From: an uncultured Verrucomicrobiae bacterium
GTDB taxonomy: Bacteria; Verrucomicrobiota; Verrucomicrobiia; Chthoniobacterales; UBA10450
Length of the DNA stretch: 64,000 bases
Assembly: GCA_963726745.1 (NCBI GenBank)
Contig: CAVSDR010000003.1
Span: 1,116,078 to 1,180,077, forward strand
Direction of reading: 5' to 3'
Positions 1 through 8,679 of the stretch are shown piece by piece (the first letter of the stretch is position 1; every line of letters begins with the position of its first letter). A model generated the notes under the pieces. It saw only the letters and a list, made by a program, of their open reading frames with translations, was not told where the DNA came from and did not search any database. Made by a program: the position numbers and the translations under genes.

Positions 1-2
1 GG

Positions 3-848
3 GTGGTCGCGCTCACGGATGACGGCCATTGCGTGCAGAATAACGAGCTTATGCGCCGCGCGGTGGAGTATGCCCGCATGGTCGGCCTGCCGCTGCTGGA
101 TCATTGCCAGGATTACCAACTCGTCGGCGATGGGGTGGTGCATGAAGGCTATTGGAGCACGCTCCTGGGCCTGCCTGGCTGGCCGGCGGCAGGCGAGGAA
201 ATGATCGTCGCGCGCAACATCTTGCTGGCTGAACTCTGCGATCATCAGATCCATTGCCAGCACATCAGCGCCGCGGGAAGCGTGCGATTATTGCGCGAAG
301 CGCGCGCCCGCGGGGTCAAGATCAGCGGCGAAGTTTGCCCGCACCATCTGGCGTTGACTGACGAAGCGATCCAGAACTTCGACACGAATTACAAAATGAA
401 TCCGCCGCTGCGGACGCGCGCGGACATCGAGGCGCTGCTCGCGGGTTTGGCCGATGGCACGCTCGACATCCTCGCGAGCGACCATGCGCCGCACGCGAAA
501 TTTGAAAAGGAGCGCGAGTTCGACCAGGCGCCCTTCGGCATTCTCGGCCTGGAGACGGAGCTGGGGCTTTTCCTCGACTTGCTGGTGCACAAAACCAGGA
601 CGCTCGAGCTGCCGCAAGTGATCGCCATGTTGACGGCTAATCCGGCGCGCCTTTTGAAATTAGCCAGCGGGACGTTAAGCCCCGGCGCGGTCGCCGATGT
701 GACCCTGATCGATCCCGAGCTCGAGTGGACCGTGGACGCCGGGGAATCAGCCAGCCTCTCGTGCAACACGCCTTTCCACGGCTGGCAGCTCAAGGGCCGC
801 GCGGTGCGCACGATCGTCGCCGGGAAGACGGTCTGGGAATTGCCCTAG
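3..848 (+). CDS. pyrC: Dihydroorotase (type I), 5'-truncated by window edge
   Basis: Motifs DHCQD, HCQHIS, EVCPHHL, KMNPPLR, ASDHAPH, APFGILGLET, NPARLL, TPFHGWQLKG. Confidence 0.93.
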   Translation: MVALTDDGHCVQNNELMRRAVEYARMVGLPLLDHCQDYQLVGDGVVHEGYWSTLLGLPGWPAAGEEMIVARNILLAELCDHQIHCQHISAAGSVRLLREARARGVKISGEVCPHHLALTDEAIQNFDTNYKMNPPLRTRADIEALLAGLADGTLDILASDHAPHAKFEKEREFDQAPFGILGLETELGLFLDLLVHKTRTLELPQVIAMLTANPARLLKLASGTLSPGAVADVTLIDPELEWTVDAGESASLSCNTPFHGWQLKGRAVRTIVAGKTVWELP

Positions 849-870
849 GCCGCGCGTGACCTTCGCGGGC

Positions 871-900
871 AAAAAAAAGCGCGACCATCGCTGGTCGCGC
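871..900 (-). terminator. Intrinsic terminator of sRNA copy 1
   Basis: Minus strand GCGCGACCA-GCGA-TGGTCGCGC-TTTTTTTT. Confidence 0.88.
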
Positions 901-950
901 TGCGGAAGCTAAGGAGATGTTAGTTTTAGTTGGTGACTCCCAGTTCGCAG
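871..950 (-). ncRNA. Candidate sigma54-dependent small RNA, copy 1 (~80 nt)
   Basis: Lies between a -24/-12 promoter (961-976) and a 9-bp GC stem with GCGA loop plus U8; near-identical second copy at 2602-2682; no start codon/ORF inside the predicted transcript. Confidence 0.75.
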
Positions 951-960
951 GTTCTTCTTT

Positions 961-976
961 AGCAATGGCGGTGCCA
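961..976 (-). promoter_or_regulatory. Sigma54 (RpoN) -24/-12 promoter
   Basis: Minus strand TGGCAC-CGCCA-TTGCT, exact match to TGGCAC-N5-TTGC(W). Confidence 0.82.
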
Positions 977-1040
977 CGGCCGCGGCTGCGGGAATCTTTT
1001 TCGATAAAACTGTCAACGCCCTCAGCTTCGATTCCTTGGT

Positions 1041-1220
1041 ATGGACTCAAGCAATAAAGACAAAGCCGAAGGCAAGTTCGACCAGGCCGCCGGCGCGGTG
1101 AAGCAGAAGGCCGGTGAGCTGACCGGCAACAAGGAGCTCGAAGCCAAAGGCGCCGCGCAGAATGTGGCCGGCCACGTCGAGGAGAAGACGGGCGACGTGA
1201 AGAAAGTCTTCGGCAAATAA
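1041..1220 (+). CDS. CsbD/YjbJ-family stress protein, 59 aa (below ORF-track cutoff)
   Basis: Manual translation MDSSNKDKAEGKFDQAAGAVKQKAGELTGNKELEAKGAAQNVAGHVEEKTGDVKKVFGK; typical CsbD pattern. Confidence 0.88.
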   Translation: MDSSNKDKAEGKFDQAAGAVKQKAGELTGNKELEAKGAAQNVAGHVEEKTGDVKKVFGK

Positions 1221-1232
1221 CCGATAAAATAA

Positions 1233-1266
1233 GAAGCGCTGCGTCCCATCCGGAACGCAGCGCTTC
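1233..1266. terminator. Hairpin between convergent genes
   Basis: GAAGCGCTGCGT...ACGCAGCGCTTC, 12-bp inverted repeat. Confidence 0.7.
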
Positions 1267-1291
1267 GCTTCTCTAGCAGCGGAGCGTGGGT

Positions 1292-2536
1292 CTACTCCTC
1301 GCCGCCGTCGTCGTCGCTTCCACCGTCATCGCCGCCGTCGTCACCGCCATCATCATCCCCACCCTCGTCGTCACTGCCGCCATCATCGTCGTCTTCGCCG
1401 TCTCCGTCGAAGTCCTGGCCGTCATCGTCCGAATCGTCCTCCATGCTCTCCTCGTCCGCGCTGTCGTCTGATTCCACGGATTCATCGCTGTCCTCTTCGA
1501 CCGCCACTTCTTCCTGCTCTTCCGCGCTCATTTCGAAGGATTCGGTCTCGGCAAAGCTTTCCTCCGCTTCCATTTCCTCGGTGCTGATCTCCTCGGAGAT
1601 TTCGATGTCCTCGCTTACTTCGAGTTCCACCGCGGTTTCCGTTTCGCTCCACTCATAGCTTTCCTCGGTGGTGAACTCGGTGGAAGTCGACTCCCACTCG
1701 CTGGTGTAAGTGGAAACTTCGATCCACTCGCTGCGGTCGGCGCTGTTGACGTAATAATCGTAGCCGTAAAGCATGCCCTCGATCTCATCGATGAGGTAAA
1801 GCGTGGAAGTAAGTGCCGCCACGGTGAAGGGCGCGTCCACGATCCGACGCGCATCGTGCTTCATTTTCTTGATGCCCTTCAGCAGCGCCTTGTCCTTGCC
1901 CGCTTTCTTTTCCATCTGGTCGAGCTTCGCGATCAGCGCCTTTTGCTGCGCCTTCAGCTTCTCAAACTCGGCTTTTTCCTTGGCGCTTAACTCGCCGCCT
2001 TTTTTCCGGCGCGCTGCTTCCTTCGAGTAATCCGTCCGCAGGACGGCGAGCGCGTGGCCCATCTTCTTGCTCGCCTCGACCACCTTCTTGTTCTTCGAAT
2101 CGGTCAGCTCCCAGGCAATGGCCATTTGCTTGTCCGCGGTGCGCGCGTCGCTGATCCCGAGGAAGAAATCGTTGCTCTTTGCCTCGAGGCCTTTTTGCGC
2201 GCGATCAATCGCCTTGGAAACCTTTTGCACCGACTTCCAGAACGGCTTGTTCTTCGCCGTTTTCGGATCGAGCCCCTGGTCGGCGCGGGCTTCTTTGATC
2301 ATAAGAGCCAGCGCTTTGTTCGCCTTGGTCAGGAGTTCCCTGGCATTCGCTTTCTTGCCGCTGAGCTTCTTCTCCTTCTTCCCTTTCTTGTGCGTCTTTT
2401 TCGCTTCGCCGCTCTTGGCTTTCGCTTCGGCGGCCGCGCCGTGGGCGGTTAGGATAAGGCTGCGTTCCATTCCGAACCCGATGAGCACGGAGCACAGGGC
2501 GAGTCGGACCAATAAATTCGATTTTCGTTTGAGCAT
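1292..2536 (-). CDS. Exported protein with Lys-rich helical N-half and very acidic C-terminal tail
   Basis: Probable start MLKRKSNLLVRLALCSVLIG (signal-like); K/A-rich middle; last ~130 aa dominated by E/D/S/G. Confidence 0.8.
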   Translation of the reverse strand: MLKRKSNLLVRLALCSVLIGFGMERSLILTAHGAAAEAKAKSGEAKKTHKKGKKEKKLSGKKANARELLTKANKALALMIKEARADQGLDPKTAKNKPFWKSVQKVSKAIDRAQKGLEAKSNDFFLGISDARTADKQMAIAWELTDSKNKKVVEASKKMGHALAVLRTDYSKEAARRKKGGELSAKEKAEFEKLKAQQKALIAKLDQMEKKAGKDKALLKGIKKMKHDARRIVDAPFTVAALTSTLYLIDEIEGMLYGYDYYVNSADRSEWIEVSTYTSEWESTSTEFTTEESYEWSETETAVELEVSEDIEISEEISTEEMEAEESFAETESFEMSAEEQEEVAVEEDSDESVESDDSADEESMEDDSDDDGQDFDGDGEDDDDGGSDDEGGDDDGGDDGGDDGGSDDDGGEE

Positions 2537-2601
2537 GCGCGGCCCACCGTAGCAGACGGGACGCGGTTTACTGCATAATTCGCCGGGCGATGCTCCCGGG
2601 C

Positions 2602-2682
2602 AAAAAATAAGCGCGACCATCACTGGTCGCGCTGCGGAAGCTAAGGAGATAAGTTAGATAGTTGGTGACTCCCAGTTCGCAG
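2602..2682 (-). ncRNA. Candidate sigma54-dependent small RNA, copy 2
   Basis: Paralogue of 871-950 (offset 1732); same stem arms, terminator loop GTGA, tail TTATTTTTT. Confidence 0.72.
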
Positions 2683-2692
2683 CTCTTCTTAT

Positions 2693-2708
2693 AGCAGCCA
2701 CGGTGCCA
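2693..2708 (-). promoter_or_regulatory. Sigma54 -24/-12 promoter, copy 2
   Basis: Minus strand TGGCAC-CGTGG-CTGCT; GG and GC conserved at correct spacing while spacer differs from copy 1. Confidence 0.75.
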
Positions 2709-2732
2709 CGGCTTCCGAACCGCGAGAAAAAA

Positions 2733-4592
2733 CTACGTCTTGCCGGCAAAACTTTCCCACTCGGCGGTCACGCGTTCGAGTTCGGCCGCCACCCCGAGAA
2801 GCTCGCGGTTTAACTCCATCGCGTTTCCTCCGGCGTCGTAGGTTTCCGGCTTTTCCAACTGGGCGGTTAGTTCTTTCTGCCGGCCCTCCAGGGAAAGGAT
2901 ATGCATCTCGAGCTCGCGCGCTTTTTGTTCGTGCTCGCGCCTGGCTTTCGCTTCGGCCTTGCGCTGCTCGGCCTCGGCCCGGCGCAGTTGTTTCACTTCG
3001 CGCAGGCTCAGGTTTTCCGTCGAAGCGCTCGCCGCGGGTGCTTTCGGCGCGGTCGTCGGTTGCGCATTGCTCAAGGTCGTTCCGCTGGTCAGCGCGGCGC
3101 GCGCGGAAGTGGCGCGGGATTTATCGAGGTAATAATCGTAGTCGCCCGCGTAGGGCGTGAGCTGGCCGGCGCTGATGTGCAGGACGCTCTTCGCGACGGC
3201 GCGGATGAAATAAACGTCGTGGCTGATGAAAATGAGCGTGCCTTCGTATTGCGCGAGCGCGCCGACGAGGGCGTCGATGCTGCCGATGTCGAGGTGCGTC
3301 GTCGGCTCGTCCATCAAGAGGAGGTTCGGCGGATCCAGCAGCAACTTCACCAGGGCGAGGCGCGTCTTTTCGCCGCCGCTGAGGACGGCGGTCGTTTTGA
3401 AAACGTCGTCTCCGCGGAAAAGGAAGGAGCCGAGGACGGTGCGCGCGGTTTGTTCCGAGACCGGGTTCGGCATGTCGCGCGCGGTGTCGAGCACGGTCAT
3501 CATCGGCTGCAGCATCTCCACGCGGTGCTGCGCGAAGTAGCCGATCTTGACGTTGTGCCCGGGCTCGCGCGTCCCGCTTTGCACCGGGAGAACGCCGGCG
3601 AGGAGCTTGAGCAAAGTCGATTTGCCGGCGCCATTCGGGCCGACGAGGACGGTGCGCTGTCCGCGTTCAGCCTCGAAGTCTAACGACTCGTAAACCACGT
3701 GCTCGCCGTAGGCGTGGCGCACGTTCTCGAGCTTGATCACGCGATGCCCGCTGCGCGGCGGCTGCGGGAAGTGAAAGTGAACCGTCTTCTCGCGCGAGAC
3801 CGGCGCCTCGATCTTCTCCATCCGGTCGATTTGCTTCAGTTTGCTTTGCGCCTGCGACGCTTTGCTTGCCTTCGCGCGGAACCGATCGGCGAAGGCCTGG
3901 AGCGATTGGATTTCCTTCTGCTGATTCTTGTAAGCAGCGGCGTGCTGCTCTTCGCGCGCGGCTTTCTGCTCGACGTAGCTGTCCCAGTTTCCGCGGTAAC
4001 GCGCGAGCCGCTTGTGCGCGATCTCGATGATCGAGCCGACGAGCTGGTTCAGGAACTCGCGATCGTGCGAGATCATGAGGATCGCGCCCGGATAGCTCTT
4101 CAAATATTCCTGAAACCAGACGAGCGACTCGAGGTCGAGGTGGTTGGTTGGTTCGTCGAGCAGCAACAAGTCCGGCTCCATCACGAGCAGCCGCGCGAGA
4201 TGCGCGCGCATGATCCAGCCGCCGCTCAGTTCGCGCGCAGGGCGGTCGAAATCGCTCTCGCGAAAGGCGAGCCCGCTCAGGATCCGTTTCGCTTTCGGCT
4301 CGGTCTCCCAGTCGCTGTGCTCGTCGTAGTCGCCGCAGGCGAGCTTGAGCACGGTTTCCTCGCCGACGCTCGCGGTCTCCTGCGGGAGGAAGCCGAGCGT
4401 GGCCGATTTCTCGATCGAGACCTTGCCCTCGTCCGGCGAGGCCTCGCCGAGGATGAGCGAGAAAAGGGTCGACTTCCCCGCGCCGTTCGGGCCGACGAGC
4501 CCGATGCGATCGCCGCGATTCACCTGCAACGACGCATCCTCAAAAAGGGTGCGCCCGGCGAAGGCTTTCGAGACTTGGGAAATGGTGAGCAT
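2733..4592 (-). CDS. ABC-F family ATP-binding protein (YheS/Uup-like)
   Basis: Two ABC domains (GPNGAGKST x2, LSGG, LLDEPTNHLD, MDEPTTHLD), no TM segments, C-terminal coiled coil. Confidence 0.93.
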   Translation of the reverse strand: MLTISQVSKAFAGRTLFEDASLQVNRGDRIGLVGPNGAGKSTLFSLILGEASPDEGKVSIEKSATLGFLPQETASVGEETVLKLACGDYDEHSDWETEPKAKRILSGLAFRESDFDRPARELSGGWIMRAHLARLLVMEPDLLLLDEPTNHLDLESLVWFQEYLKSYPGAILMISHDREFLNQLVGSIIEIAHKRLARYRGNWDSYVEQKAAREEQHAAAYKNQQKEIQSLQAFADRFRAKASKASQAQSKLKQIDRMEKIEAPVSREKTVHFHFPQPPRSGHRVIKLENVRHAYGEHVVYESLDFEAERGQRTVLVGPNGAGKSTLLKLLAGVLPVQSGTREPGHNVKIGYFAQHRVEMLQPMMTVLDTARDMPNPVSEQTARTVLGSFLFRGDDVFKTTAVLSGGEKTRLALVKLLLDPPNLLLMDEPTTHLDIGSIDALVGALAQYEGTLIFISHDVYFIRAVAKSVLHISAGQLTPYAGDYDYYLDKSRATSARAALTSGTTLSNAQPTTAPKAPAASASTENLSLREVKQLRRAEAEQRKAEAKARREHEQKARELEMHILSLEGRQKELTAQLEKPETYDAGGNAMELNRELLGVAAELERVTAEWESFAGKT

Positions 4593-4683
4593 TTTTGCGG
4601 GCGGGCAATGTCGCCAGCCACGCCCGTGGCGCAAGATTGCCGGCTGAAATTGCCGTCTCCCGGAAGCGGCCTTAAGGAAGCGA

Positions 4684-6804
4684 ATGACGCAACGCCTCTT
4701 CGCTTTCGCTCTCCTCTGTGTTGGCGCCGCTTTCGGGAAGGAGCCGGCGAAACCCTTTGATTATCCCAAGCCGCCAACAAGCGAGCAGACCGATGACTAC
4801 CACGGCACGAAAGTGGCCGATCCGTACCGTCCGTTGGAGAACGCTGACTCGCCGGAGACGCGCGCCTGGATCGAGGCGGAAAACAAGGTGACTGAGGGTT
4901 ACCTCAGCCAGGTGCCCGAGCGTGCGAAAATCAAGGAACGCCTGACCGCGCTCTGGAACTACGAAAAATTTGGCGTCCCGACGCGTGAAGGCGATCGCTA
5001 TTTCTTCTCGAAGAACAGCGGCCTGCAAAACCAGAGCGTGCTTTATGTCGCGCCGAAGCTCCCGGCGACCGACGCGCGCGAGTTGCTCGACCCGAACACG
5101 CTCGCGAAGGACGGCACGATGGCGCTCACCGGCACCGACGTGACTGAGGACGGCAAGCTGATGGCCTACGGCCTGGCCGATGCGGGATCGGATTGGCAGA
5201 AGTGGAAAGTGCGCGACGTCGAGACCGGGAAGGATCTGCCGGATCAGATCGAGTGGGTGAAATTTTCCAGCGCTTCGTGGAAGCCAGATGGCTCGGGATT
5301 TTTCTACAGCCGCTACGACGAGCCGAAGGGCGAGGAATTGAAGGCGGCCAACTTCAATCACAAGCTCTACTTCCACAAAATGGGCACGCCGCAGAGCGAG
5401 GACGTGCTCGTCTACGAGCGGCCGGATCACAAGGACTGGCTCTTCCAGGGGCGCGTGACGGATGACGGCGCGTATCTGATCATCCACGTCGCGCGCGGGA
5501 CGGAATCGAAGAATCGCGTCTTCTATAAGGACCTGCGCGACCCGGAGGCGAAAGTGGTCGAGCTCCTGCCGAAGGAAGACGCGAAGTATGATTTCGTCGG
5601 CAACGACGGCGGCGTCTTCTGGTTCAACACCAACCTCGACGCGCCGCGCGGCCGGATCATCGCGATCGACACCGCCAAGCCGGACGCGATCAAGGAGCTG
5701 GTCCCGCAGACCGAGAACAAGCTCGAGAGCGTCTCGCTCGTGGCCGACAAGTTCGTCGCCAACTACCTGAAGGACGCGCATGCACTCGTTAGTCTGTATG
5801 ACTTGAACGGGAAGCCGTCGGGCGAGATCGCGCTCCCGGGGCTGGGCGCGGCCGATGGTTTCACCGGCAAGCGCAAGGACAGCGAGACCTTCTATCGCTA
5901 CGTCAGCTTCATCGCGCCGCCGACGATCTATCGCTACGACTTCAAGACTGGGAAAAGCGAGGCGCTCTTCAAGCCGAAGGTCGATTTCAATTCCGACGAC
6001 TACGTCACCGAACAGATCTTCTACAAGAGCAAGGACGGCACGAAGGTGCCGATGTTCATCACGCACAAGAAAGGCGTGAAGCCGGACGGCAATAACCCCA
6101 CGCTGCTCTACGGCTACGGTGGCTTCGACATCTCGGTCGTGCCGGAATTCCGTCCGGCGGTCGCAGCCTGGCTACAAGCGGGCGGCGTTTACGCTTCTGC
6201 GACTTTGCGCGGCGGCGGCGAGTACGGCGAAGCCTGGCATCTCGCGGGCACGAAGTTAACCAAGCAAAACGTCTTCGACGATTTCATCGCCGCCGGTGAA
6301 TGGCTGATCGCGAACAAGTGGACCTCGACGCCGAAGCTCGCGATCAACGGCCGGAGCAACGGCGGCCTGCTCGTGGGCGCCGCGCTCACGCAACGTCCCG
6401 ATCTCTGGGGCGCGGCATTGCCATATGTCGGCGTGCTCGATATGCTCCGCTTCCAGAAGTTCACCATCGGCTGGGCCTGGGCGTCGGATTACGGCTCGTC
6501 GGATAATCCGGAGGAGTTTGAGGCGATCTACAAATACTCGCCGCTGCACAACGTGAAGCCGGGGACGAAATATCCGCCGACCTTGATCGTGACCGCGGAT
6601 CACGACGACCGCGTTTTCCCGGGCCACAGCTTCAAGTTCGCCGCCGCCCTGCAAGCCGCGCAGGCCGGCGACGCGCCCATCTTGATCCGCATCGAGACGC
6701 GCGCGGGTCATGGCGCCGGCAAACCGACTTCGAAAGTGATCGAGGATTACGTCGACCAGTTCACCTTCCTGGTGAAGGCACTCGAGATGAAGCTCGCGTT
6801 CTAA
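4684..6804 (+). CDS. Prolyl oligopeptidase (S9A), exported
   Basis: Signal peptide; DPYRPLE, YGYGGF, GRSNGG (catalytic Ser), DHDDRV, AGHGAGK. Confidence 0.95.
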   Translation: MTQRLFAFALLCVGAAFGKEPAKPFDYPKPPTSEQTDDYHGTKVADPYRPLENADSPETRAWIEAENKVTEGYLSQVPERAKIKERLTALWNYEKFGVPTREGDRYFFSKNSGLQNQSVLYVAPKLPATDARELLDPNTLAKDGTMALTGTDVTEDGKLMAYGLADAGSDWQKWKVRDVETGKDLPDQIEWVKFSSASWKPDGSGFFYSRYDEPKGEELKAANFNHKLYFHKMGTPQSEDVLVYERPDHKDWLFQGRVTDDGAYLIIHVARGTESKNRVFYKDLRDPEAKVVELLPKEDAKYDFVGNDGGVFWFNTNLDAPRGRIIAIDTAKPDAIKELVPQTENKLESVSLVADKFVANYLKDAHALVSLYDLNGKPSGEIALPGLGAADGFTGKRKDSETFYRYVSFIAPPTIYRYDFKTGKSEALFKPKVDFNSDDYVTEQIFYKSKDGTKVPMFITHKKGVKPDGNNPTLLYGYGGFDISVVPEFRPAVAAWLQAGGVYASATLRGGGEYGEAWHLAGTKLTKQNVFDDFIAAGEWLIANKWTSTPKLAINGRSNGGLLVGAALTQRPDLWGAALPYVGVLDMLRFQKFTIGWAWASDYGSSDNPEEFEAIYKYSPLHNVKPGTKYPPTLIVTADHDDRVFPGHSFKFAAALQAAQAGDAPILIRIETRAGHGAGKPTSKVIEDYVDQFTFLVKALEMKLAF

Positions 6805-6809
6805 GCGCC

Positions 6810-7310
6810 ATGCAAAAAGTCCACCTGAGCGAAGTCCCCGAGGACGAACGCCGTTCGCCCGGAGGAGAATTTCACAAGTTCTGCAAAGACATCTCGGTCG
6901 CGCTCGGGCGCGAGCCGAAGTCATCCGATCTCGAGAAGCGGCACCCGTTCGACCTCGCGATGGTCCGGTTGCCGGAAGGCAAATCGTATTGCCCATATCA
7001 TGCGGAGAGCGCGCAGTGGGAACTCTACGTGATCGTGAGCGGCAAGGGGCGCATCCGCGATGCCAGCGGCACGCATGAGGTCAGCGAAGGTGACATCTTT
7101 CTCTTCAAGCCCGGCGAAGCGCACAAAATCTCCGCCGCGGCCGATGGCGCGCTGGTCTATTACGTGATCGCCGACAACCCGGTCGGCGACTCCTGTTATT
7201 ACCCGGACAGCGGGAAGTTCATGGTCCGGAAGGAAGGCGAAGAGGTGGTCGTGGTGAAAGGCAAAGAAGCCGATTACTACGACGGCGAAGAGCGCCCGGC
7301 GCAAAAATAG
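6810..7310 (+). CDS. Cupin domain protein
   Basis: PYHAESAQWELYVIVSGKG and GDIFLFKPGEAH cupin motifs, YYPDSGK. Confidence 0.85.
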   Translation: MQKVHLSEVPEDERRSPGGEFHKFCKDISVALGREPKSSDLEKRHPFDLAMVRLPEGKSYCPYHAESAQWELYVIVSGKGRIRDASGTHEVSEGDIFLFKPGEAHKISAAADGALVYYVIADNPVGDSCYYPDSGKFMVRKEGEEVVVVKGKEADYYDGEERPAQK

Positions 7311-7352
7311 CCGGCAACTTCAGCGCTGCGGAATTCGCGCTCTCCCGTCTGG

Positions 7353-7369
7353 GGTAACAGCGGCGTTAC
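7353..7369 (+). promoter_or_regulatory. Putative operator GGTAACAGCGGCGTTAC (GTNAC-N6-GTNAC)
   Basis: 16/17 identical to the reverse complement of 13051-13067; both lie upstream of genes in the same relative orientation. Confidence 0.6.
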
Positions 7370-7437
7370 GTCTCCCGTGTGGAGGACGCCCGCGCACTGG
7401 GGCAGAGTCGTTCGATCAAGGAACTGAAGCGAAAACT

Positions 7438-8679
7438 ATGAAACACTTATTCAACCTATTGGGCGTCATCGTCCTCCTGGCCCTCACGGCCACGGGGACC
7501 CGTGCGGGCGAAAGCCGGCGCGGTTTTTACGAAGGGGATCTCGCGGGCAACGGCAAGATCGTCTTCTTCGTGCAGGCAAACGAGAGCCTCTCCGTTTATG
7601 CCTTCGACAAGGCCGGGCAGCAGGTGAGCTACGCGGGCGGACCGATCGCCAGCAACGGCACCTTTAGCCTGACGACAAACAGCAATCAGCCGATCGCCGG
7701 CACGGTCTCGCGGGACACGATCAGCGCGACCTTCCTGGGCCAAAACATCACCGCGCAGCGCACGAAGGTGTTCGGCAAAGGCGAGCATTTCTCCGGGCGC
7801 TTCACCACGACGGCGCGGAGCGACAGCGGCGCCTCGCTGGATTTGAAGATTGTGATCGATGCGCAAGGAAACATCTTCCTCGTGACGAAACAGGGCTCCA
7901 CCGTTTTGGGTGGCTTTGGAACGATCACGCCGACGGCCTCGCCGAGCCCAAGCCCGAGTGCGACGCCTTCGGCCACGCCGAGGCCCAGCGCGACCCCAAC
8001 ACCAACGGCTTCGCCCACCCCGACCGCCACGCCATCACCATCGCCAAGGCATGGCGACGACGATGACGAAGGCGACGACCGCGGCGGCGGCCGTCACGGC
8101 TCCGAGGATCGCGACGATGCGGAGGATCGCTTCGAAGATGCGAGCCAGCCGACCTTTAACGCCACCTTCTCGGTCACGTTGGTGACCGGCCAGTTGGTCA
8201 CCGGCAATCTCACCTTCAGCCATGGGCTGCTCATGGGTGACCTGACGTTGAACGGCGTGATTTACCGCTTCCGCGCGCCGCAGCAGTCGTCGGCCAATCG
8301 GCTGGCTAATATCGCCACGCGCGGTTTTGTGAACACCGGCCAGGGCCAGCTGATCAGCGGGTTCATTATTCGCGGCGGGCCGAAGCTGGTCATCGTGCGC
8401 GCGATCGGGCCATCGCTGGCGGCCAAGGGCGTGAGCCCGGCGCTGGCCGACCCCGTGTTGCAGCTCTTCAACGACGGCACGCTCGTGCGCGAAAATGACG
8501 ACTGGCAAAGCGCGTCGAACGCGGACGACGTGATCACCAGTGGCGTGGCGCCGGAGAACGCGAAGGAAGCGGCGATCATGATCCGGCTGGAGCCGGGCGC
8601 TTACACCACCGTGGTCCGGGGCGCGAATGACGGCACCGGCATTGCCTTGGTGGAAGTCTACGAAGTCGCCCGCGACTAA
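7438..8679 (+). CDS. Secreted protein with Pro/Thr/Ser linker, acidic insert and C-terminal NIATRG-type domain
   Basis: Signal peptide; SPSPSATP repeats; HGDDDDEGDD; RLANIATRG...GFIIRG...VRAIGPSL...DPVLQL...NDDW...GIALVEVYE. Confidence 0.85.
   Translation: MKHLFNLLGVIVLLALTATGTRAGESRRGFYEGDLAGNGKIVFFVQANESLSVYAFDKAGQQVSYAGGPIASNGTFSLTTNSNQPIAGTVSRDTISATFLGQNITAQRTKVFGKGEHFSGRFTTTARSDSGASLDLKIVIDAQGNIFLVTKQGSTVLGGFGTITPTASPSPSPSATPSATPRPSATPTPTASPTPTATPSPSPRHGDDDDEGDDRGGGRHGSEDRDDAEDRFEDASQPTFNATFSVTLVTGQLVTGNLTFSHGLLMGDLTLNGVIYRFRAPQQSSANRLANIATRGFVNTGQGQLISGFIIRGGPKLVIVRAIGPSLAAKGVSPALADPVLQLFNDGTLVRENDDWQSASNADDVITSGVAPENAKEAAIMIRLEPGAYTTVVRGANDGTGIALVEVYEVARD

Follow-up and report, generated by a model that had tools for sequence, protein, structure and literature searches.

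What is made from a short element that stands twice on the minus strand of one bacterial contig, each time between a promoter and a terminator? This question is raised by a stretch of 64,000 nucleotides (the window; contig CAVSDR010000003.1, positions 1,116,078 to 1,180,077 of the forward strand) from an uncultured Verrucomicrobiae bacterium of the order Chthoniobacterales. Two copies of about 110 bp lie at 871-980 and 2602-2712 of the window, and an initial annotation had taken them for sibling small RNAs (sRNAs) driven by sigma54. Genome comparison largely agrees. Judged from sequence, the element belongs to a family of stand-alone sRNAs of about 80-95 nt that are very probably made by sigma54 RNA polymerase and stop at a terminator of their own. 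Their function can be answered more tentatively: the RNA may act as a protein decoy.

Anatomy of the Two Copies

The copies share 102 of 116 aligned positions (blastn E 2.9e-33), and their 100-nt flanks match, ungapped, at only 15 and 31 positions. The positions, strand and layout first described for them were confirmed. In each copy, the box TGGCAC-N5-YTGCT (TGGCAC at 976-971 and 2708-2703; TGCT at 964-961 and 2696-2693) is followed by ten spacer bases and a body from 950 or 2682. Canonical sigma54 spacing places the transcription start (+1) at 950 and 2682, which is close to where conservation starts. Each body ends in a 9-bp GC stem (900-879 and 2632-2611; 10 bp including the closing A-U pair) with the loop GCGA in copy 1 and GUGA in copy 2, and then a U tract (878-871 and 2610-2602). 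The alignment also upheld the list of differences: none lies outside the promoter spacer, the stretch from -11 to -1, the loop of the upstream stem P1, one terminator-loop base and one extra tail base. The extra base corrects the offset, which is 1732 at the promoter, as proposed, and 1731 at the tail. The features of the two copies are as follows.

961 to 976, minus strand: copy 1 sigma54 -24/-12 box, TGGCAC-N5-TTGCT; score rank 2 of 46 genome-wide sites, with a matrix built from the family itself
871 to 950, minus strand: copy 1 predicted sRNA, about 80 nt; 107.7 bits, or 77 bits with a promoter-free model; +1 at 950 placed by canonical spacing
902 to 948, minus strand: copy 1 bulged stem P1, arms 948-937 and 916-902; minimum free energy and centroid folds, pair counts in homologues
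917 to 936, minus strand: copy 1 G-free, A/C-rich loop of 20 nt, the proposed business end; opening energy about 0, composition
871 to 901, minus strand: copy 1 intrinsic terminator, GNRA-capped stem and U8; sequence, covariation
2693 to 2708, minus strand: copy 2 sigma54 -24/-12 box, TGGCAC-N5-CTGCT; 25 nt past the stop of an ABC-F gene
2602 to 2682, minus strand: copy 2 predicted sRNA; 108.7 bits; P1 2680-2634, loop 2668-2649, terminator 2633-2602

Promoter and Independence from Neighbours

The sigma54 signature GG-N10-GC is kept in 100/103 family members, with a variable spacer, although this count is partly circular because both the search model and the search pattern contained the promoter. 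Two further counts are free of this circularity. Homologues recruited by blastn retain the signature in 23 of 26 cases (alignment A2), and a pattern made of promoter and terminator with a free middle of 62-92 nt returned family bodies in 40/42 matches. The host genome (94.7% complete) carries the rpoN gene that such a promoter requires, together with six enhancer-binding proteins, five of the REC-AAA-HTH type and one without REC. The gene of the REC-less activator (G000:C3:477361-478428, minus strand; L285) adjoins an HlyD-like gene, and its HTH matches are only weak.

A reading in which no functional RNA is made is very unlikely, whether the element is then taken as a promoter-terminator cassette, as a neighbouring gene's 3' untranslated region or leader, or as a mobile repeat. 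Many copies do lie 13-66 nt past a same-strand stop codon, with the upstream gene co-oriented in 21/37 loci, so the terminator may end the upstream mRNA too, and no conserved enhancer dyad or word was found in 56 upstream regions. However, in 29/37 loci the gene called next downstream lies on the opposite strand (simple gene caller). Neighbours outside the main locus are unrelated, widely varying genes, across which promoter, body and terminator stay together, and P1 covaries. The mostly opposite downstream gene and the varying neighbours argue against a leader or a riboswitch, in agreement with the initial annotation's argument from copy 1, which indeed runs into the convergent stop of an amidohydrolase/dihydroorotase-like gene (3..848). 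The element has its own terminator, no fixed downstream gene and no conserved open reading frame; AUG occurs in 2/102 loops, against 15.9 in shuffles, and the loops carry indels of any length. The alternative of a dispersed repeat (REP or MITE), also raised at the outset, fails on copy number. A promoter-free model finds exactly three strong matches in the genome (58-77 bits; the next scores 20), each downstream of a sigma54 box, and relatives carry 1-4 copies.

A Family Centred on Chthoniobacterales

The third match in the genome is a diverged copy on another contig (G000:C2:245179-245296), with the same promoter and layout (nhmmer E 1.7e-8). The initial annotation had missed it, as well as P1 and a csbD-like gene between the window copies. 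A family search beyond the host genome was carried out with model R1, built from 29 sequences (alignment A2; the degenerate blastn match L021 was excluded). Members were found in 26/34 genomes of the genus, including 9 of the 11 high-quality ones, and 11 of the 26 positive genomes carry 2-4 copies. Of 151 order genomes, 22 have a match; by score and sequence, 16 of these hold members and six only a terminator (26-33 bits). The 16 comprise the host genome, 10/15 genomes of its own family, 4/16 of a second family and 1/7 of a third, and a deeper sample of the second family was positive in 14/61 genomes. Outside the host's own family, the phylum and class samples gave only matches of 25-38 bits. 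Those beyond the order read as plain terminators, and 0/21 examined (of 23 weak class-level matches) have a sigma54 box upstream.

When all GTDB species genomes were scanned with a pattern, 95 loci emerged. Among the 80 listed with titles, 62 are full members, one is incomplete and 17 are non-members. The members listed are titled Chthoniobacterales, Chthoniobacter, Spartobacteria, unnamed Verrucomicrobia and, for one metagenome-assembled genome, Prosthecobacter; none bears the title of a cultured strain. Further searches added one member titled Prosthecobacter and one titled Acidobacteria, and binning or labels may explain the Prosthecobacter and Acidobacteria cases. Viral contigs gave one pattern match, which is not a family member. 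In total, the family has about 159 distinct sequences, mainly from Chthoniobacterales.

In a rough tree (79 rows, few columns), copies 1 and 2 are sister rows (support 97/84), and copy 3 belongs to an older clade. By sequence, copies 1 and 2 are thus best read as a recent duplication within a larger family. Copy 1 is probably the duplicate, because copy 2 holds the usual place in the genus, behind an ABC-F gene (18/26 loci) and facing csbD (17/26). Another genome, G002, carries two copies in tandem at the ABC-F locus (L019:1332-1610) and, 1.8 kb apart, two identical copies of the other subfamily (L072:2053-3943). These arrangements point to repeated, independent duplication.

A Predicted Bulged Stem with an Open Loop

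The common anatomy comprises the sigma54 box, then the bulged stem P1 with an A/C loop of about 20-30 nt that is poor in G, and the intrinsic terminator. The predicted transcripts fold at z scores of -3.66 (copy 1) and -3.22 (copy 2) relative to shuffles. Pairing was counted in the MAFFT alignment A5. Of 78 non-redundant rows it keeps 75; the three left out are L028, L076 and L052, the last of which folds poorly. Rows from G001, G008, G030 and G035 enter A2 and R1, the genus copy and neighbour counts, the pilC loci and the loop statistics given below, but not A5. In A5, 88.9% of cells pair; none of 500 shuffles was as good, and slid controls reached 34-47%. Two-sided changes occur in 16/20 pairs and both stems covary; the main P1 helix contributes 8/10 such pairs at 81.7% paired, counted on a hand-set structure that leans in its favour. 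Many P1 changes are single rows, and rows of kin are not independent. Since family members are kin, every p value given here is overstated. From A2, RNAalifold recovered nothing but the terminator and, spuriously, a hairpin in the promoter. It missed P1 because the P1 bulges shift the register; for this reason, the hand-set structure was used. Single-sequence folding supports P1 with at least six expected base pairs in 69/77 members, and the loop is 75% unpaired.

The composition of the loop is unusual. Across 102 loops, cut by a regular expression that mis-cut a few, A makes up 41%, C 28%, U 24% and G 7%, while intergenic DNA has 31% G. The first two bases (CA) are kept, and the remaining length and sequence vary even between syntenic orthologues, which is unlike a pairing seed.

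Base pairing is the commonest mode of action for short sRNAs that end in a terminator, which counts for a trans-acting RNA of the Qrr, FopS or MmgR kind. Such an RNA would have KhpAB or an RRM protein as its chaperone, and its seed on mRNAs would be either the loop or a P1 arm that has opened. The loop is fully open and fairly conserved within subfamilies, and weak Rfam matches to suhB/MmgR and to Burkholderia sRNAs span a UCUCC stretch. Multicopy pairing families without Hfq exist, FopS being an example in the accessible part of PMC11697453. Nevertheless, loops differ between orthologues, and the best predicted targets reach only -9 to -12.5 kcal/mol, with few common to both copies. Scores at gene starts (windows of -70 to +40 only, with rough starts) are no better than those of shuffled loops, being equalled by 23, 31 and 40 of 40 shuffles for three loops. 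The arm resembling an anti-Shine-Dalgarno (anti-SD) sequence is paired in P1 and changes along with its partner in copy 3. Pairing is possible but, on these counts, unlikely. Anti-SD action as such was rejected in view of this pairing and of the near-nil use of SD sequences in the host.

A partner might also be another RNA. It is quite improbable that the family acts as a sponge for a G/U-rich small RNA that targets C/A-rich leaders. The open C/A loop is the complement that such an RNA would require, and loop variation could track that of the partner. However, the longest perfect genome complements of the three loops (10-12 nt) fall in coding DNA or 16S rRNA, and none in a candidate sRNA gene.

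The 16S matches raise the idea that the RNA pairs with the 5' domain of 16S rRNA in ribosome assembly or shutdown, which we consider highly improbable. The longest genome-wide complement of the copy 3 loop, 12 nt, is in 16S rRNA, and copies 1 and 2 have one of 10 nt there (G000:C6:176936 and 177103). We take the sites to be the helix-6 region for copy 3 and the helix-11 region for copies 1 and 2. Scored over 33 thinned loops, these sites take places 1 and 3 among 762 rrn windows, and at the first site, 24/28 loops beat their own shuffles. Yet the longest match across the family averages no better than chance (7.04 vs 7.00 shuffled), the own 16S is no better than that of other genomes (28 genomes, p 0.48), and there is no covariation. 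The second site is invariant across the genus although loops vary. Moreover, the rank 2 window is antisense, the excess is mostly one 6-bp match, and the sites were chosen after looking.

A Possible Protein Decoy

The reading that we favour, if tentatively, is a stand-alone sigma54 sRNA that acts, by analogy with CrcZ, as a protein decoy. An activator would fire sigma54, and the RNA would accumulate. P1 would then present an A/C loop free of G and AUG, similar to the 5' leaders of some mRNAs devoid of SD sequences, notably those of surface genes under sigma54 such as pilC. A single-strand RNA-binding protein would attach to this loop; KhpA/KhpB, an RRM protein and ribosomal protein S1 are candidates. 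The bound protein would be drawn away from A/C-rich leaders, following the CrcZ-Hfq logic without Hfq, and additional copies would increase the dose.

The protein inventory of the host leaves room for such a partner. Hfq, CsrA, ProQ, RapZ and cold-shock-domain proteins were not found in its genome, and KhpA, KhpB and three RRM proteins are present. SD use is at chance (289 of 2351 starts vs 268 in shuffles; 29 of 252 vs 24.7), although the 16S rRNA retains CCUCC. These counts agree with the available portion of PMC10783764, where Verrucomicrobia are named as scarce in SD sequences. In a host whose genome shows no sign of the three classical sRNA proteins or of SD-led initiation, neither an anti-SD nor an Hfq model applies as such.

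Other sigma54 boxes in the genome precede two prepilins, a PilC/T2SSF gene and an fn3 protein and, presumably, Hsp20 and response regulators, which were identified from translations by eye. The box of pilC is present in 24/24 full-length loci listed. The leaders of 22 sigma54-box genes, some with starts that are probably wrong, resemble the loop more closely (median -2.4 bits) than do 250 other leaders (median -7.1 bits; p 0.0045), and the pilC leader ranks first genome-wide. The leaders of what we take, from translations read by eye, to be groEL, groES, atpA, pstS and trxA also rank high. The word (C/U)UAC(C/U), common to loops, occurs in 21/24 pilC leaders by manual count. Its longer form (C/U)UAC(C/U)A is found in 16/77 loops against 4.6 in shuffles, in 16/1181 leaders with 3 on their reverse strand, and in 4/1194 3' regions.

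A stronger version of the decoy, which we regard as doubtful, makes the RNA a start-codon-less mimic of SD-independent initiation regions. Induced by sigma54, it would titrate the machinery that reads leaders (S1/30S, KhpAB or an RRM protein). If true, the mimic would shift the translational ranking of mRNAs with strong leaders, those for pili and surface proteins among them, in a lineage that has no Hfq, CsrA or ProQ.

Several observations weigh against the decoy. A G-poor A/C content is also expected from selection for single-strandedness in a genome of 64% GC; selection for open RNA yields the same composition, so the likeness of loop and leader is possible without mimicry. Of the 38 most loop-like sites in the genome, only 2 are close to a start, compared with 29/400 random intergenic sites, and a strict sigma54 box stands at only 1/16 leaders with the shared motif (p 0.10). 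The pilC motif overlaps a TATAAT-like element and so may act at the DNA level. Loop conservation within subfamilies, the uncertain leader starts and the failure to find a conserved enhancer upstream count on the same side. With regard to partners, the one RRM protein profiled, which is glycine/arginine-rich, occurs in 144/151 order genomes and the sRNA in 16, with no link in co-occurrence. For KhpA/KhpB, the accessible parts of 10.64898/2026.10.12.757534 and PMC12408800 describe no A/C motif and contacts mainly to the backbone. A single loop is also a poor sponge: CrcZ has six sites in 407 nt, according to the available part of PMC4063720.

Some observations on sigma54-linked loci stand apart. 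The pilC promoter (G000:C3:68802, minus strand; loci L293-L315 and L319) contains a near-palindrome across the -12 box and a conserved (C/T)TACC right after the start site, often overlapped by TATAAT; a possible operator or second promoter comes to mind. The fn3 gene (C7:30476) has a 17-nt leader stretch near-identical to that of pilC. In addition, 2.7 kb without called genes (G000:C6:824622-827380; L287) shows a sigma54-like box, after which come hairpins and patches rich in A/C, and may contain missed AT-rich genes or another RNA.

The Genes around the Copies

The gene order in the window is an amidohydrolase/dihydroorotase-like gene, copy 1, a csbD-like gene, a gene for a 414-aa protein, copy 2 and an ABC-F gene.

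3 to 848, plus strand: amidohydrolase/dihydroorotase-like gene, 3' part, convergent with copy 1; gene call, protein-family match
1041 to 1220, plus strand: csbD-like gene, the usual convergent neighbour in the genus; Pfam CsbD E 4e-15; 17/26 homologous loci
1292 to 2536, minus strand: gene between csbD and copy 2, encoding a 414-aa protein without a known family; no Pfam match
2733 to 4592, minus strand: ABC-F ATPase gene, the usual upstream neighbour; 18/26 homologous loci

The 414-aa protein has a lysine-rich N-terminal part and a long D/E-rich tail. Its best atlas match (0.76) is an unnamed Verrucomicrobiota cluster, and its gene adjoins the element in three other loci, in an order that varies between relatives. 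A strong 15-bp hairpin at 1233-1266, between csbD and this gene, is likely a terminator common to both. The csbD-like genes look leaderless (window 1041-1220 and homologous loci), and a promoter-like word pair of a non-sigma54 type recurs just 5' of their ATG; it may mark a general-stress sigma factor of the group. No sigma54 box was seen before them when the upstream regions were read by eye. A functional link between the sRNA and csbD was rejected on these grounds, and the two share synteny only.

Comparison with Known RNA Systems

The initial annotation did not recognise the family, and neither does Rfam: cmscan gave no family at its gathering score for positions 1-6000 of the window or for eight homologous loci. 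The parallel first drawn with Qrr and CrcZ holds for sigma54-driven siblings and breaks down for mechanism, as Hfq was not found and no Qrr-like pairing seed is evident. Qrr RNAs of Vibrio are sigma54-driven, short and multicopy and end in an intrinsic terminator, as here. They pair via an invariant seed with Hfq; this family has no invariant single-stranded seed, its host has no Hfq, and there is no Rfam match. Sponges of the CsrB/RsmY type carry many loop GGA motifs for CsrA, whereas the single GGA here lies inside P1 and CsrA was not found. The fold and size of GlmY are unlike those of this family. GlmY of Enterobacteriaceae is a decoy sRNA that sigma54 controls in some species, as far as the partly available sources describe it; RapZ was not found in this host, and GlmY/GlmZ gave no Rfam match.

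CrcZ, which has paralogues in some species, is the closest in logic. In the accessible part of PMC4063720, CrcZ of Pseudomonas aeruginosa is a stand-alone, RpoN-dependent RNA whose A-rich single strands resemble initiation regions, and the same decoy logic is proposed here. It differs in having 407 nt and six A-R-N stretches, against about 80 nt and one G-free loop, and in its dependence on Hfq (PMC4063720), which was not found in this host; no CrcZ/CrcY match was obtained in Rfam.

The RNAs suhB/MmgR (RF00519), ncS025 (RF02869) and the Betaproteobacteria toxic sRNA (RF02278) are of similar size and have a UCUCC-like stretch 5' of a GC terminator. Matches to them score 18-25 bits against gathering scores of 41-50 (21.3, 18.1 and 25.1 bits for RF00519, with a threshold of 41). 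The weak suhB and ncS025 matches arise from the anti-SD-like arm, which is locked in P1. SuhB blocks SD regions with Hfq, according to the available part of 10.64898/2025.12.09.693200, and this host lacks both. FopS/RbpB of Bacteroides thetaiotaomicron is alike in its multicopy sRNA, RRM-bearing host and tie to a surface system, and unlike in having 14 copies, sigma-ABfr promoters and a conserved 5' seed that is single-stranded (accessible part of PMC11697453), compared with a closed P1, a variable loop, sigma54 and 1-4 copies.

On the features tested, the family resembles a sigma54 sibling sRNA yet fails membership of CrcZ, GlmY, Qrr, CsrB and MmgR. No described sRNA of the Chthoniobacterales lineage was found among the best 12-20 of 287-7485 literature matches, which largely excluded subscription papers and the supplements of large RNA-motif screens, where an unnamed motif is possible; the family is apparently undescribed. 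It offers a conserved regulatory-RNA candidate for Chthoniobacterales, which are abundant soil bacteria, and an entry point to the regulation of leaders without SD sequences. A short RNA with one open loop would be an ideal bait for a protein that reads A/C-rich RNA in Verrucomicrobia. The family would also connect riboregulation with the sigma54 regulon to which pili and surface proteins belong.

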